Assembly: GCA_963555815.3 (NCBI GenBank)
Contig: CAUVWX020000001.1
Location: 640,001-704,000 of the forward strand
Direction of reading: 5' to 3'
DNA length: 64,000 nt
From: a bacterium
GTDB lineage: Bacteria; UBA8248; JACPRG01; G963555815
Shown here: in pieces, positions 33,730 through 39,945 of the stretch
Numbering within the stretch: the first letter of the stretch is position 1
How the letters are laid out: the number at the start of each line of letters is the position of its first letter
Notes under the pieces: generated by a model
Databases searched by the model: none
The model's input: the letters and a program-made list of their open reading frames with translations, nothing else
Told to the model about the DNA's origin: nothing
Program-made: the position numbers and the translations under genes

Positions 33730-35799
33730 ATGCGTGCGCGCCGGTTTTGCCTTCAGGCCCTGATCGTCCTTCTTCCTGCCCTTCTTGCGTCTCTTGCCTT
33801 CTCCCAAGAAGTTCGGGTCCTCAAGGGGCATGGATATTCGGTCGCTTTTTCACCCGACGGCCGCCTCCTCGCCTCTGGGTCAGGGAAGACCATTCGCCTC
33901 TTGGAGGTCTCCTCAGGGGAAGAATTTAGGCGCTTTGAAGGATTTGGAGCCATTCAGACCGTCTCCTTTTCGCCTGATGGCCGCCTCCTGGCATCAGGGT
34001 CCGAGAGCGAGAATACGGTCCGTCTCTGGGAGGTCTCATCAGGAAGGGAGCTAAGGCGCCAGCGCCTTCTCGGGCATGAAGGCAAGGTCTCGTCCGTCAC
34101 CTTTTCACCCGATGGCCGTCTCCTGGCTTCAGGGTCATGGAACGACACCATCCGCCTCTGGGAGGTGTCCTCAGGGAACGAATTAAGGATCCTTGATGGA
34201 CATAGAGATATCGTCCACTCAGTCTCCTTTTCGCCCGACGGCAGCATCCTGGCATCAGGGGCAAGTGAAAAGACCATCCGCCTCTGGGAGGTCTCAACAG
34301 GGAGGGAGCTAAGACGCCTTGAGGGCCATGAAAATGGGGTCAACTCCGTCACCTTTTCACCCGATGGCCGTCTCCTGGCCTCAGGGTCATATGACCGAAC
34401 CATCCGCCTCTGGGAGGTCTCATCGGGGAAGGAAGTAAGGCGTTTTAAGGGGCATGGGGATGTGGTCAACTCCGTCTCCTTCTCGCCCGACGGCCGCCTT
34501 CTAGTCTCTGGGTCACGTGACAAAACCGTCCGCCTCTGGGAGGTGTCCTCGGGTAGAGAGCTGAGGCGCCTTGAGGGGCACAGAAACAATGTGTTAGCCG
34601 TCGTCTTTTCACCCGATGGCCGCCTCCTGGCGTCAGGGTCATGGGACCGAACCATCCGCCTCTGACCGATTTCCCCCGCTGGGGCTCCCGTCGTCGCCAA
34701 AGCGCCATCTCCTGCGCCTGCTCCGGAGCCTCCTCCCGTTGCCGAAGCACCTGCTCCTGCGTCGCGTGTCGAGCCCCCACGTCGGGACCCCATCCAAGGG
34801 CTTCTGGCCCGGGCGGATTCTCAGTTCTCGCGCAAGCACTACACGACGCCCGAAGGAGACAATGCTTTCGAGACCCTTCAGGAGGTTCTTAAGCTAGACC
34901 CTGGGAGCGAGCGGGCCCTCCAAAGGCTTCAGGAGATGGCGCAGATATATCGAGGTTGGGGCGACAAGGATCTTGCGCGGGGTAATTTTGAGCGGGCTCG
35001 GCAGAATTACGAGAAAATTCTTGTCCTCTTTCCTAAGGATCGGGAGGCCCGGGAACAGCTGGCGGCCGTTGACCAAGCTGAACAGGAAGAGGCCCGAAGG
35101 GTCGCCCGGGAGGAACATGAAGAGGGTCTTAGGAGGGAACAGGAAGAAGTGGCCTCTGTGCCGCCGGAAGAAAGGAAATGGAGGTCGGCGGGGTCGGGGT
35201 TCTTCCTGGCCGGGTCCACGCATATTGTGACGAGCAACCACGTCGTCCGGGACGTAGAGGAGATTCGAGTTTCCTTCCCCTCAGGCGAACAGTATCAGGG
35301 CAGCGTCGTCGCAAGAGACGCCAACAACGACCTGGCCCTCGTCCTTCTCCAAGGAATTCAACCGAAGAGCGGAGGCTTTGTCGCCGACCTGAGTGCTGAG
35401 GTCCAGGCCGGCGAGCGCATTCACGTCCTCGGCTACACCCTTGGCACAAACCTCAGCCGAAGCCCGAGCATCATCTCGGGACAGGTGAACGCCGCCACGG
35501 ATCTTGGGGACAACATCGCCCAGTTCCGGACGAATGCGCTCTTCAACGAGGGGAACAGCGGGGGGCCGGTCCTCAACGAGTTTGGCAAGCTTGTCGGGAT
35601 CGCCCGCGCGGGCCTGATACAGCAAGGGGTCGAGGGGATTCGCTTCGGCACCAAGCTTTCGGCGGCCTCCCTCCTTTTTGGCCAGGCGCAAATCGAGCGG
35701 GAGTTCACCATCCAGGTGACGCCGAGGGAAACTCCTATGCGCCCCCAAGAGATTTTCAGCGAATTCTCGCCTTTCGTGGTGTTGATTGAAACCCGTTAG
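33730..35799 (+). pseudogene. secreted WD40 + Pro/Ala linker + TPR + trypsin-like protease gene interrupted by one in-frame TGA
   Basis: ORFs 33730-34665 and 34936-35799 share a frame and the gap is open; TGA at 34663-34665 sits at the conserved Trp of 'TIRLW'; protease triad TSNHVV, NNDLAL, GNSGGP. Confidence 0.8.
33811..34662 (+). repeat. seven highly similar WD40 coding repeats (about 120-130 bp unit)
   Basis: Repeated FSPDG(R/S)xLxSGS...TxRL(W) units with strongly similar DNA. Confidence 0.9.
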
Positions 35800-35809
35800 A
35801 GGACGGTTC

Positions 35810-36709
35810 ATGAAATCTCTTTTTCTTCTCGTCTTTCTTTTTCTCTTTCCGGCCCACGGCCTTGCTCAGGACACCGACGTTACTGAGATGGCCCAGGAAG
35901 AAAAGCGCTCCATCGTGGTGGTGGCGGTGGGCGTGTACCCTTTTGGGGAGGATGACACCCTGGCAGGTGCGAGGGAGCGGGCTTACCAGAACGCCCTGTA
36001 GAGGGCCTGCGCTATGGCGGGGCTGAAGCTGAGTAGCGAGGCCCTGGTCCAAAACGAACTCCTGAAATACTCCATCCTCAAGACCGAGTCGGGCTGCAAT
36101 CAAAAGGTGATCGAACGTAAGGACCCCGAGCTTACCGAGCTTAGGTTGAGGCAGCCCGCGCGCGTCGAGGTGAAGGTCGAGGTCCTCTATACCCTCCTCG
36201 ACCAGGAGAACCGCCCCGTCTCTCCGGAATCCCTGGTCAACATCCCCGATGCCCCCCTCACCGTTAACGTCTGGACCGAGAAGAGGCGCTACCGGCAGGG
36301 AGAGCATATCGTCGTCTTCGTTCGGGGCAACAAGCCCTTCTACGGGAGAGTGGTGAGCATCAATCCACAGGGCATAAAATTCCTGCTTCTTCCAAATGAG
36401 TTTCGACCGGACAACTTCTTTGAAGGGGGAAAGAACTACCAGATCCCGGACGAGGACCAGGGGGATCGGTTCGACTTCACCGTTGGCGAGCCCCCGTACG
36501 GCCGCGAGCAGATCGTGGTCTTCGCCAGCTCAGTCCCCCAGGGAGACCTTCTGACCGCCCCCATCGCTGGCGGGGTCATCTCGGAGTTTCCGGGGACTCG
36601 AGAGGCCCTCGACTTGAGCGTGAGAAACTTGCAAGTGACTCCCGGAGCCGGGGCCGGTTCCGAGGCCGATTTCATCGAGGCCACCTGGACGATAGAGACT
36701 TCTCCTTAA
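35810..36709 (+). pseudogene. secreted DUF4384-domain protein interrupted by one in-frame TAG
   Basis: Signal-peptide ORF ends at TAG 35999-36001 and continues in frame into ORF 36014-36709 (VWTEKRRYRQGE...LLPNEF...PPYGREQIVVFAS). Confidence 0.72.
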
Positions 36710-36893
36710 CCTGATCGGCGTCTCACACTTCCTCCACAGCTCAATCTAGCACCTCGCCAAGCGGGCGTTTTCCCTCTTCTGTTGGGCCGCCAGGGGCCCC
36801 TCAATTTTTCAGAAAAAACGGTAGTGGGTCGTTTTGATTGATTAATTAACGTGTTCGAGGGGGGGGGTGTTTTGAAAGGTTTTAGGGATCGTT

Positions 36894-36918
36894 AGTGCGT
36901 TATGCCGCTTAACGCACT
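36894..36918. terminator. hairpin downstream of doc
   Basis: AGTGCGTTA-7 nt-TAACGCACT, 9-bp stem, 16 nt after the doc stop; no strong U tail. Confidence 0.4.
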
Positions 36919-36934
36919 TCGGAGAGCACGTTTT

Positions 36935-37375
36935 TCAAGGTCTAGCAAAGTCCCGCAAGGAACACCTTGGAGACAGCCACTCTTCGAATTCTTCTTTTCC
37001 CGTCTGTCCGTCTGCAATTTGAAGGAAAACCGCCGCAATTTCGCCTTGTTTGGCGTCTAATGAATATCCGTTTAAGCCCAGGAAACGGACTACACTGAGG
37101 GCGGCAATCCTCTTGTTGCCATCATTAAATGCGTGGGCTTGGCAGACATGAAATTCATAGGCAGCAGCCATCCCAAGAGGGAAAGAGTGTAAATATTCAC
37201 CGCCTGATGTAGCCCTCGCTTGGTGGATTGCGCTCTCAAGGGCGTTTCGATCTCTTAGCCCTGGCATTCCTCCAAATTCTTCAATAGCTGTCAAATGGGC
37301 CCCTATAACGTCTTCAATAAACAAAAAAGCGGGGCCGTAGCTTCTCACACGACCCCGCCCCGTTAAAACCATCAA
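36935..37375 (-). CDS. doc: Doc (death-on-curing) Fic-family toxin
   Basis: HAFNDGNKRIA Doc-type Fic motif, FGGMPGLRDRNALESA, FLGLNGY. Confidence 0.9.
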   Translation of the reverse strand: MMVLTGRGRVRSYGPAFLFIEDVIGAHLTAIEEFGGMPGLRDRNALESAIHQARATSGGEYLHSFPLGMAAAYEFHVCQAHAFNDGNKRIAALSVVRFLGLNGYSLDAKQGEIAAVFLQIADGQTGKEEFEEWLSPRCSLRDFARP

Positions 37376-37376
37376 A

Positions 37377-37928
37377 CTAAAGATTTGCTAGGCTTTTAAA
37401 ATCTTCTCGGTATTTCTCTAGGCTCTCCTTGGTTACTTTCTCAAGAATTGCCTTTCGTCTGCACGCCATAGTCCCAACAATGTCTATACATTCATACTGC
37501 TTGGCCTTTACCATCGGTAGAGTAGAGTAGACATACTTAACGAATCTGCCCCACGGAAGCCTCCATGTGTCCTCAATAACCTTTCTTAGCACAATCTTTT
37601 CCTCGTTTGTAAGGGCTTCAGCGACAACCTGCTTTTGGAGATCGGTGGCTTTCCACTCATACCACCGCTTTTTATCGCCATACATGGTGACATCTTCGTG
37701 GATTTCAATCTTCTTCCCATCAAGAGACTCCACATAGGAATCACCGGCCCCAACAAATGGGCCATGGTTGTTAAAAATCCACCTTGTTTGCGTGAGTTGC
37801 TCTCCATTTCCCCACGCCCATTCAACATCTAGCAAGTAAATGAGCTTATCGAGCCTACCGCTCGTAAGCTCTTGGGGTCTGGGGTATTCTGAGACCAAGA
37901 AATCCACTAAGTCCGAGAATCTCGCCAC
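37377..37928 (-). CDS. Panacea (DUF4065/SocA-like) antitoxin
   Basis: 'LTSGRLDKLIYLLD', 'WIFNNHGPF', 'LRKVIEDTW...YVYSTLPM'; GGAGGTG RBS before GTG; 1 nt upstream of doc. Confidence 0.8.
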   Translation of the reverse strand: MARFSDLVDFLVSEYPRPQELTSGRLDKLIYLLDVEWAWGNGEQLTQTRWIFNNHGPFVGAGDSYVESLDGKKIEIHEDVTMYGDKKRWYEWKATDLQKQVVAEALTNEEKIVLRKVIEDTWRLPWGRFVKYVYSTLPMVKAKQYECIDIVGTMACRRKAILEKVTKESLEKYREDFKSLANL

Positions 37929-38039
37929 GGTTCGTCACCTCCACACTATTAATTTGGTAGATGGCGGTGAGGCACGTCAATAGCTTTTTCGCACTATGTA
38001 AAAAATATGGATTATTTTCTGCGTATCTATTAACACGCC

Positions 38040-38522
38040 ATGCCTCGGGGTCTATATTGTTTCTCAGCGTTTGACCTATTGGTAACCGGAGTGGATCCAA
38101 TAACTTTCAATGAGTCCGTAAAGAGCCAGATCGAAGTCCTCGCGGCTGGGGAGGCCCATATTCTAAGCACGATTGCTCCCCTACAAAAGGAGCTTGAGGA
38201 GATCAGGGCTCGGATGAACCACCTAGAAGGTTATTTGGCTGCCCTTGATTCGGGTGAGGCGCAAAAGGGCCTGAAAGAGAAAGAGCCCATAACGGATAAG
38301 ATTGTCCGTGTATTCGAAAGAGAAAAGCGTCCTCTTCACTACCTGGAGGTCTTGTCTTTGCTTAGGGAGCAGGAGGGGTTTGTTATGACTGGAAAAGACC
38401 CAAAGGCAAATATGACAGCAAAGCTAGCAGGAAGTGCAAGGTTTAGCCGTCTCGACCGTGGTATTTACGTTCTCACAGAGTGGACCAAACAAAATCAAAG
38501 AAAAGCCCCGCAGGAGGACTAA
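38040..38522 (+). CDS. coiled-coil + HARE-HTH (HB1/ASXL/restriction endonuclease winged HTH) protein; start may be GTG 38091
   Basis: 'IVRVFEREKRPLHYLEVL...GKDPKANMTAKL...RFSRLDRGIYVLTEW' matches the HARE-HTH pattern. Confidence 0.7.
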   Translation: MPRGLYCFSAFDLLVTGVDPITFNESVKSQIEVLAAGEAHILSTIAPLQKELEEIRARMNHLEGYLAALDSGEAQKGLKEKEPITDKIVRVFEREKRPLHYLEVLSLLREQEGFVMTGKDPKANMTAKLAGSARFSRLDRGIYVLTEWTKQNQRKAPQED

Positions 38523-38536
38523 CCGTGCGGGGCTTT
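38493..38536 (-). terminator. intrinsic terminator, strongest for the minus strand
   Basis: Inverted repeat AAAGCCCCGCA (38502-38512) / TGCGGGGCTTT (38526-38536); on the minus strand the GC stem is followed by TTTTCTTTGATT. Confidence 0.7.
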
Positions 38537-38548
38537 GAAATTACTGGT

Positions 38549-38639
38549 GGATAGGGATAGGGGATAGTTCCCCTCGGGGACTTAAAATCCCACATAGTAT
38601 CCGGGCGGATATGCGGTTCGATTCCGCCCCTCTCCACCA
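38549..38639 (+). tRNA. non-canonical (8/4) allo-tRNA-like gene, anticodon TAA
   Basis: Acceptor GGATAGGG/CCCTCTCC (8 bp, one T:C mismatch); D stem AGGGGA/TCCCCT with 4-nt loop; anticodon arm GGGA-CTTAAAA-TCCC; variable stem GTATCC/GGATAT; T arm GCGG-TTCGATT-CCGC (4 bp); discriminator A plus encoded CCA. Confidence 0.8.
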
Positions 38640-38732
38640 CCACAATATTTTTGGGTGGGCCTCAGCGGTAACTGAGGCCCCTGGCAACACCGCTTGGGAT
38701 GTGCCCCCTAGCGATGCACCCACCCTCTGACG

Positions 38733-38761
38733 AATTTAGGCTAAATCCCTCGATTCGTCAA
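38733..38761 (-). promoter_or_regulatory. sigma70-like promoter pointing away from the transposase
   Basis: Minus strand TTGACG-17 nt-TAAATT, overlapped by inverted repeat TGACGAAT (38728-38735) / ATTCGTCA (38753-38760). Confidence 0.6.
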
Positions 38762-38810
38762 GCATCCAACGGCGGGCATCACTCCCAGGCCCTTTTGGGA
38801 GTGCCTACCG

Positions 38811-39635
38811 ATGAACGTCCTGCCACTCAAGCGCAAGGCCCTGGTCCTGTCTGCCATTACCGAGGGCACCTCTATTCGGGGGGCCTCTCGGCTAACCGGC
38901 GTCCAGAAAAACACCATCATCAAGCTTATCTGCGACACAGCTGAGAAATGCTGGGCCATTTCAGACAGTAAACTCAATGGAATACAGGCAAACGATCTTC
39001 AATGTGATGAGCTTTGGAGCTTTGTCGGGAAAAGGGACAAGAGACTCTACGGCCACGAGAGGCCCTATCTCGGCAGCCAGTTCATCTTTGTGGCCCTTGA
39101 GGCTCAGACAAAACCGATCCCCTGCTTCACCGTTGGGAAGCGTGATCTCTATACAGCAACCAAATTTATGCGGGATCTAAGAAAAAGGGTCTCAGGTCGG
39201 CCTCAACTCACGACAGACGCCTTCCAGGCATATCACACAGCTGTCCGCTTAGCCTTTGGGTCCGACGTGGACTATGCTCGGCTGGCTAAATCCTTTGCCA
39301 ACAACGGGACCCCAAGGCGGGAAGGCTATGCCCCATCTGATTTCAGGGCGATTAAGCCTGTCGTAATTAGCGGGAACCCCGACCCAAATAAAATCTCAAC
39401 CTCTTACGTTGAAAGGCAAAATTTGACGCTGCGGATGCAGATGCGTAGGTTTACCAGATTAACCAACGCCTTCAGTAAAAAGCTCCCAAACCTTAGGGCT
39501 GCGCTATGGCTTCACTTCACCTACTACAATTTTTGCAGGGTGCATCAGATGCTGGGGGTTACTCCGGCTATGGCCTCAAATATTTCCGATTACCCCTGGA
39601 ATTGGAGGGAAATTCTGTCGTGGCAAGCCCAATAA
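38811..39635 (+). CDS. IS1-family DDE transposase, single uninterrupted ORF
   Basis: N-terminal HTH (SIRGASRLTGVQKNTI); QCDELWSFVGK, LTTDAF, STSYVERQNLTLR, RRFTRLTNAFSKK. Confidence 0.9.
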   Translation: MNVLPLKRKALVLSAITEGTSIRGASRLTGVQKNTIIKLICDTAEKCWAISDSKLNGIQANDLQCDELWSFVGKRDKRLYGHERPYLGSQFIFVALEAQTKPIPCFTVGKRDLYTATKFMRDLRKRVSGRPQLTTDAFQAYHTAVRLAFGSDVDYARLAKSFANNGTPRREGYAPSDFRAIKPVVISGNPDPNKISTSYVERQNLTLRMQMRRFTRLTNAFSKKLPNLRAALWLHFTYYNFCRVHQMLGVTPAMASNISDYPWNWREILSWQAQ

Positions 39636-39709
39636 GGGACCGCAGAAAAGGGGCGCCTTTTATCCACCAGGAAAACGACCCACTACCGAAAAAACCTGTT
39701 GAAAAGTCT

Positions 39710-39738
39710 TTGATAAGGCGCAGTGCTTGCGGTATAAT
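39710..39738 (+). promoter_or_regulatory. dnaA promoter
   Basis: TTGATA-17 nt-TATAAT; DnaA-box-like sites nearby: TGTTGAAAA (39697-39705), GTTTCCACA (39863-39871), TGTTGATAA (39874-39882). Confidence 0.7.
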
Positions 39739-39945
39739 GGTATAGGTTTGAGAGAGCGTCCCCTGCCGAGTAAAAAGCGGCCCTTTCATAATGTTTTCAG
39801 AACCGACCTTCAGCTTTATAGCACCTACAGGGAAAACCTGGGGCGGAAGGGCCTCCGGAAAAGTTTCCACATCTGTTGATAATCTGTTTGTGTGTGTGTT
39901 TTTAGGTAGATGTACCGTGTTGGCCTGGGGGATTTACACAGCATA

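Follow-up and report, generated by a model that had tools for sequence, protein, structure and literature searches.

An IS1-family cargo transposon upstream of dnaA with an allo-tRNA-like gene, and a possible tRNA-based brake on its transposase

The subject of this report is an IS1-family cargo transposon in the genome of a bacterium of the UBA8248 lineage (GTDB: Bacteria; UBA8248; JACPRG01; G963555815). It lies in a 64,000 bp stretch of DNA, here termed the window (GenBank assembly GCA_963555815.3, contig CAUVWX020000001.1, positions 640,001–704,000, forward strand), to which all unprefixed coordinates refer. The element spans 36820–39687 (2868 bp), with a GC content of 49.8% against ~60% for the genome. 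Its ends and genes are as follows.

36812..36819, plus strand: left copy of the 8-bp target duplication (GAAAAAAC), a single copy at the empty site of genome G001 (sequence)
36820..36835, plus strand: left terminal inverted repeat (TIR), 16 bp (sequence)
36935..37375, minus strand: doc, passenger gene for a Doc-type Fic toxin; start uncertain, at 37375 or at an in-frame GTG a few codons on (Pfam Fic, TIGR01550, alignment with P1 Doc)
37326..37361, minus strand: hairpin resembling a terminator and covering the 5′ end of doc, function putative
37377..37928, minus strand: Panacea (PanA) antitoxin gene, directly upstream of doc (PF13274)
38040..38522, plus strand: gene for a coiled-coil and winged-helix (HARE-HTH-like) protein, likely start GTG 38091, predicted regulator (domain and family searches)
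38549..38639, plus strand: 8/4 allo-tRNA-like gene with anticodon UAA (38583–38585), long variable arm, A73 and encoded CCA (Rfam; fold by inspection)
38811..39635, plus strand: IS1-like DDE transposase gene, a single open reading frame (ORF) of 274 codons with TTA at the invariant Leu217 (39459–39461) (Pfam/NCBIfam, alignment, structural model)
39672..39687, minus strand: right TIR, 16 bp (sequence)
39688..39695, plus strand: right copy of the target duplication (GAAAAAAC), directly upstream of the predicted dnaA promoter (sequence)

The two TIRs are perfect inverted copies and GAAAAAAC adjoins both outer ends, as a first-pass annotation of the window, made from its letters alone, had read them. 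That annotation had suggested looking for an empty site in relatives, and one exists: in the same-genus genome G001 the flanks are joined across one GAAAAAAC, so the insertion is a true one. IS1-family elements have TIRs beginning GGT and make duplications of 8–9 bp; the TIRs here start with GGT and the duplication is of 8 bp. The two-ORF, −1 frameshift organization of canonical IS1 is replaced by one uninterrupted ORF. The passenger genes lie within one TIR pair and move as a unit, as in a transporter insertion sequence (IS). The call of a mobile IS1-type element with cargo thus holds, with TIRs, duplication, empty site and four genes present; the element is best described as a cargo transposon of the IS1 family in which PanA and Doc are an exchangeable pair of passengers. 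It had also been called recently mobile; the empty site in G001 upholds the mobility, and the recency calls for a qualification. Strains differing at 42–43 of 3901 bases carry the element at the identical site, within a single contig, so insertion is older than their divergence, and no empty-site joint was found among all contigs of 8 runs.

The transposase, correctly foreseen as one uninterrupted DDE protein, has 274 amino acids and matches PF03400 above the cut-off (27.4 against 24.1) and NF033558 below it (E 1e-17, 64.8 bits against 100). Catalytic residues D66, D136 and E201 are invariant across relatives. Its predicted model has an N-terminal helical domain and an RNase H-like core; the best fold matches of this model, to TnsB and retroviral integrases, are weak (E 3e-3 to 4e-3). 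IS1 transporter elements carrying passengers (PMC9330008) share the DDE transposase with an IS1 Pfam match, the GGT TIRs, the 8-bp duplication and the passengers; the present element differs from them in its single ORF without frameshift, its score below the NCBIfam IS1 cut-off, its lack of an N-terminal zinc finger, and its tRNA gene and structured leader. ISMhu11 is a candidate subgroup name within the family; the literature searched did not return it.

An allo-tRNA(UAA)-like gene had been proposed upstream of the transposase, and its fold, assigned by inspection, agrees: an 8-bp acceptor stem and 4-bp T stem (a 12-bp branch split 8/4), a 6-bp D stem with tetraloop, a long variable arm and a UAA anticodon. 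The 8/4 branch, the D stem with its tetraloop, the long variable arm and a non-Ser anticodon are shared with the allo-tRNAs of Mukai et al. 2017 (PMC5389517), some of which also sit near toxin-antitoxin genes and one near a transposon protein; in contrast to those allo-tRNAs the gene here has A73, not G73, and the available text describes neither a defined IS family nor a link between anticodon and transposase codons. The G73 or U73 discriminator found in most Ser-type allo-tRNAs is accordingly missing. ARAGORN misses the gene, which scores 50.4 bits with the Rfam tRNA-Sec model. Identity as tRNA-Sec was rejected, the anticodon being UAA not UCA, the branch 12 bp not 13 bp and the host's own tRNA-Sec lying elsewhere; also rejected was the 9/3 fold given by the detector, which takes bases of the D arm. 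Base 38552 is T in the window and G in all five covering runs, where it gives a perfect 8-bp acceptor stem; the T is probably either erroneous or a private variant. Three of these five runs carry G at 38566 in the D loop. A viral scan with the UAA allo-tRNA pattern returned no loci.

To place the element, ~225 related loci were gathered, the metagenome and viral scans contributing the best 80 of 592 and the best 80 of 140 loci. TIR pairs were found for 103 relatives (1.3–4.8 kb long), 82 of them with an 8-bp duplication. In 37/210 elements, against 1/210 shuffles, the 750 bp preceding the transposase contain a tRNA-like hairpin, and ARAGORN calls a same-strand tRNA there in 14/160 elements against 0/70 further inside. 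Most tRNA-bearing elements belong to one clade (support 0.999), in which the tree has the anticodon changing repeatedly. The cargo is varied. A survey of 65 ORFs, most of them taken from elements with a tRNA, and of 150 among the 262 ORFs of 85 elements without one, found Panacea, RelE-like/helix-turn-helix (HTH) pairs, PemK, HipA-like, restriction-modification and GmrSD genes, with Panacea in three tRNA-bearing and three tRNA-less elements. The coiled-coil winged-helix gene occurs in 8/29 tRNA-bearing and 10/153 other elements, counts drawn from biased seeds. Toxin, tRNA and HTH gene had been expected to travel and act as a unit, and here the proposal is not supported: a tblastn search with Doc found no match in any other of the ~225 loci, toxin-antitoxin cargo varies with or without the tRNA, and the closest sibling (L029) has Panacea, the HTH gene and a tRNA with UAU anticodon, with an IS3-type element in place of doc. 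On the recurrence by which that proposal was to be judged, the tRNA-like gene does recur and the HTH gene is somewhat enriched with it, but neither shows an association with the toxin. The recurrent feature is a module immediately before the transposase gene, not a Doc-tRNA-HTH unit; the HTH gene and the tRNA both track the transposase.

Two further elements of the host genome, B (IS1-like) and C (IS1595 type), have the same order of HTH-like gene, long-armed tRNA(UGG) and transposase. Element B (L004, G000:C1:980285-982252) has TIRs, an 8-bp duplication, a coiled-coil HTH gene and a CCA cluster in its transposase gene, and is a better test case than the element in the window. Element C (L005, G000:C1:813276-816442) is a cargo element with an 8-bp duplication; a lone exact copy of the TIR of the window's element lies at the end of its transposase gene.

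The anticodons of these tRNAs tend to match codons placed in one segment of the adjacent transposase gene. When codons are ranked by enrichment in residues 155–192, the cognate one takes first or second place in 9/17 elements with a clear loop and in 6/12 motif-called elements. Pooled, 36/61 codons at stake within the segment are cognate in the clear-loop set (11.5 expected) and 34/62 in the motif-called set (8.3 expected), while outside it the motif set has 8/223 against 23.8 expected; elements with ambiguous loops (L219-221, L049, L234) and two with stop anticodons (L095, L232) were set aside from these pooled counts. Matches cover the anticodons UAU, UAC, UAG, GAG and UGG on separate branches of the tree (L372 was added after the tree was made). 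Inside and outside the segment respectively, the cognate codon is ATA 4/6 and 0/15 in L029, GTA 8/9 and 1/20 in L183, CCA 3/5 and 0/4 in element B, CTA 3/3 and 3/16 in L214, and CTC 3/3 and 3/25 in L372. Nine elements have Leu anticodons: their cognate codon stands at Leu158 in 5/9 (0.75 expected) and at Leu217 in 6/9 (1.13 expected), and at eight other Leu columns in 2/72. The window's element is one of the six Leu217 matches, with TTA; on this one site it is a weak example of the apparent coupling. Readthrough of stop codons was rejected as an explanation, since five transposases with in-frame stops lack an upstream tRNA call and the transposase ORFs of L095 and L232 are intact. In the literature, with subscription journals and ISfinder outside the search, we found no description of IS-encoded tRNAs matched to transposase codons.

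The bodies of the tRNAs bear on what they might deliver at those codons. The synthetases AlaRS, SerRS and LeuRS largely ignore the anticodon. Among 33 tRNA-like calls, 12 have G3·U70 with A73, the alanine mark, and eight are long-armed with G73; none of these 12 or eight bodies, by reading, carries a matching Ala or Ser anticodon. Element B has what we take, judging by consensus, to be a Leu-type body with a Pro anticodon. Ser is never found at columns 158, 186 or 217 (0/212 sequences), nor is Leu at Pro175 (0/212). The targeted columns that are best conserved thus lack the residue to be inserted, so that a mischarged tRNA would harm the enzyme, not complete it. CTC is the commonest Leu codon of the host, which encodes its own UAA, UGG and UAC tRNAs; some matched codons being common and the host having its own tRNAs, a supply of decoding capacity is not needed. 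Foreign anticodons on Ala- and Ser-type bodies, damaging residues and no need for supply together favor a brake: the marks of most bodies suggest mistranslation that would restrain the transposase. Mukai et al. 2017 (PMC5389517) showed that Leu codons are read as Ser by allo-tRNAs whose anticodon is GAG or UAA.

The leader between tRNA and transposase, with the sequences upstream of it, contains further candidate control features.

38030..38058, plus strand: predicted sigma-70 promoter for the HTH-tRNA unit, 10/12 (consensus match only; three sites in the region against 2.8 expected)
38504..38536, strand unassigned: hairpin between HTH gene and tRNA, reading as a minus-strand terminator (sequence)
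38657..38716, plus strand: leader hairpin 1 with an upstream copy of the ribosome-binding site (RBS) and start region of the transposase (direct repeat, start of an upstream ORF; sequence)
38733..38761, minus strand: conserved antisense promoter, whose predicted RNA pairs with the transposase RBS
38775..38805, plus strand: hairpin predicted to occlude the transposase RBS (sequence)

A hairpin is conserved in the leader, where 9/27 predicted pairs are changed on both sides, and a strong hairpin occupies the same HTH-tRNA stretch in 5/6 clade members. The antisense promoter is present in 8/8 clade members against 12/184 others, by a motif defined after inspection and in clade sequences that are related; predicted pairing of its RNA with the RBS beats at least 98% of shuffles in 6/8 clade members. 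Transcription from this promoter is predicted to run through the entire tRNA gene, up to a terminator at 38504–38520. The promoter is also found in the tRNA-less clade members L032 and L033, which have a different hairpin-rich segment at the position of the tRNA upstream of the transposase. Its conservation points the same way as the charging marks, to probable restraint of the transposase. The antisense RNAs RNA-OUT of IS10 and art200 of IS200 (PMC5006887, PMC4513863) and the regulator-versus-transposase frameshift switch of IS1 (PMC5009743) are alike in being element-encoded restraints of transposase translation, and an RBS-occluding structure is shared with these systems. The predicted antisense RNA here differs from those of IS10 and IS200 in pairing through the upstream direct repeat, not by overlapping the start, and from all three controls the element would differ in using the tRNA as a second, codon-level control.

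We propose, with a probability of about 0.45, that the HTH gene, the allo-tRNA and the structured leader together act as a brake on the element's own transposase. A synthetase blind to the anticodon would charge the tRNA: SerRS in the present element, and in relatives AlaRS or LeuRS. The cognate codons fall on conserved positions in the stretch from the second catalytic Asp to the helix of the catalytic Glu, and there the tRNA would introduce an incorrect amino acid. The product would be a DNA-binding but inactive transposase, its dose rising with copy number, and the antisense RNA would meanwhile block transposase initiation. A broader proposal is possible though more doubtful: that a widespread IS1-like lineage controls its transposase by programmed mistranslation, with bodies charged blind to the anticodon, anticodons switched, and matching codons re-placed at vulnerable residues.

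Several observations count against this brake, beginning with the window's own element. It fails the segment test (TTA 0/1, rank 52), its Leu158 is CTG, and its single TTA at Leu217 has a background chance of ~9%. Its anticodon stem has only four pairs; its A73 stands against G73 in all 16 UAA allo-tRNA rows seen of the table of Mukai et al., whose six UAU species were inactive as suppressors (PMC5389517); and the single RNA run gave only a 227-nt piece of panA and no contig on the tRNA, so it is uninformative on expression. More widely, the segment 155–192 and position 217 were chosen after the first cases, four of the nine Leu elements having suggested 217; among 12 unambiguous elements labelled subsequently, the cognate codon is in the top two for just 4, and of five later Leu cases 2 match at 217. 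The sample is biased toward close relatives, related elements are not independent, and in most of the family no tRNA can be detected. The codon link did not carry over to the IS1595-type element C, whose transposase has no CCA cluster (2/10). The model of the transposase is unreliable at residues 161–187 (predicted local distance difference test, pLDDT, <50) and so gives no guide to the packing of the targeted residues. Finally, the strongest clusters (L183, L185, L188) go with short UAC bodies lacking G3·U70, which could be charged with Val, and the A73 of the present tRNA would suit Leu charging and an ordinary decoder.

These last two points keep alive two rival readings. In one, a correctly charged tRNA (Leu here) would help to translate rare codons of the transposase, promoting or gating transposition. 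A73 with a UAA anticodon is consistent with Leu identity, TTA makes up 1.6% of host Leu codons, and the codon matching would serve this reading equally, as would Val charging of the short UAC tRNAs. We consider it unlikely, the host encoding tRNA-Leu(UAA) and having TTA codons in dnaA and gyrB; the matches moreover include common codons (CTC, GTA, CCA), the charging marks of most bodies are those of Ser or Ala, and supply does not explain codon depletion outside the segment. The other reading, less likely again, holds that in this element tRNA and transposase have ceased to match, the tRNA being vestigial or recently swapped: there is no TTA cluster, CCA is 3/5 in the segment as in sibling B, whose tRNA reads CCA, the anticodon stem is weak, and the source lineage has the D-loop variant at 38566. 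Yet acceptor stem, T arm and CCA are intact, and TTA stands at the column where five other elements with Leu anticodons have their cognate codon. The tRNA might instead be an RNA toxin acting through global mistranslation and checked by the overlapping antisense RNA, as an addiction or anti-phage module. Induced allo-tRNAs killed Escherichia coli (Mukai et al. 2017, PMC5389517), the predicted antisense transcript spans the entire tRNA gene up to the terminator, and A-ending codons are rare in this GC-rich host; but toxicity would leave anticodon-specific codons at fixed transposase sites unexplained, and the antisense promoter persists in the tRNA-less L032 and L033, which makes this reading improbable. 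We give as little credence to the idea of the first-pass annotation that Doc, tRNA and HTH protein belong to a single device for abortive infection or addiction, with EF-Tu at its centre. All parts do lie between the same TIRs, allo-tRNAs have been noted near toxin-antitoxin genes (Mukai et al. 2017, PMC5389517), and Doc has weak PADLOC PDC matches, via its Fic domain. Set against this, Doc is confined to this locus among the ~225, the two modules are divergently transcribed, toxin-antitoxin cargo is also found in tRNA-less elements, and a codon link between tRNA and toxin was rejected: doc has TTA at 3/13 Leu codons against 10.8% in cargo, an enrichment that is not significant, and none of the cargo genes checked shows such a link.

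The passenger pair itself is ordinary cargo of an already published type, and had rightly been read as a plausible PanA-Doc toxin-antitoxin pair, its function being predicted from domain scores and gene order. Doc matches Fic (E 8e-11) and TIGR01550 above its cut-off, with an intact HAFNDGNKR motif (HxFxDxNKR in the P1 Doc alignment), and PanA matches PF13274 at 33.3 bits against a cut-off of 25.7 (E 1e-7), with a homolog in L029 that is 43% identical. A Panacea gene directly upstream of a Doc-motif gene is the PanA-Doc type II arrangement. The likeness is to the PanA-Fic/Doc pairs of Kurata et al. 2022 (PMC8832971), where 32 Fic/Doc-like PanA partners are listed and the Corynebacterium doosanense pair was validated as a translation inhibitor; the pair here differs in being cargo of an IS1-like element, in the terminator-like hairpin over the toxin start, and in having an activity that is predicted only. 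That hairpin (37326–37361) is predicted to hold toxin output under antitoxin output, and the pair probably acts on its own in addiction or defence. A contig of low depth from run X12 lacks 1 bp of doc (window 37300) and 5 bp of panA (37517), as expected if the two genes decay together, or possibly by assembly error. For the HTH gene the HARE-HTH match is below the gathering cut-off (PF05066, E 6e-5, 23.8 bits against 25.9); the HTH protein of relative L049 scores 35.7 bits, and PF05066 is found on 14% of the members of the third Atlas match. A viral scan with the HTH alignment found no loci.

Insertion took place ~15 bp before the −35 box predicted for dnaA, in a stretch (39660–39900) with motifs that by eye resemble DnaA boxes, one of them inside the right end of the element. 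The upstream neighbours (33730–36709) encode a WD40-repeat protein, a protein with TPR and a trypsin-like protease, and a DUF4384 protein. Elsewhere in the same genome are a third IS1-like cargo element, L213, with no tRNA call (G000:C1:339485-341949), and three more IS1595-like transposases (G000:C1 near 1074058-1074870, 1147122-1148000 and 1352833-1353649). Among relatives, L232 and L095 have tRNA-like genes with stop anticodons upstream of intact transposases (CUA with the alanine mark and UUA on a Ser-type body, respectively), and L177:4626-4876 has three tandem irregular tRNA-like genes upstream of its transposase, recalling the polycistrons of Mukai et al. A single-protein search of genome contigs returned two loci only, and a viral scan with the single transposase none. 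One of 120 UAU tRNA loci in viral contigs lies beside such a transposase, on the same contig as L118 (flanks covered for 80 loci); most phage UAU tRNAs are unrelated to these elements.

The element is real and its cargo ordinary; the regulatory idea is drawn from sequence comparison, and this copy is a weak example of it. New here are the matching across five anticodons, the argument from charging marks for mistranslation, and the antisense promoter. Allo-tRNAs have been engineering tools since 2017, and in the literature available their natural role is apparently unexplained; an anticodon that co-varies with the codons of one adjacent gene makes that question directly testable. If the brake is real, mistranslation would be purposely used for gene control and would be a new route for a transposon to limit its own spread. 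Under the broader proposal of a lineage-wide programmed mistranslation, it would control copy number where IS1 uses its frameshift switch, and would be what many allo-tRNAs naturally do.

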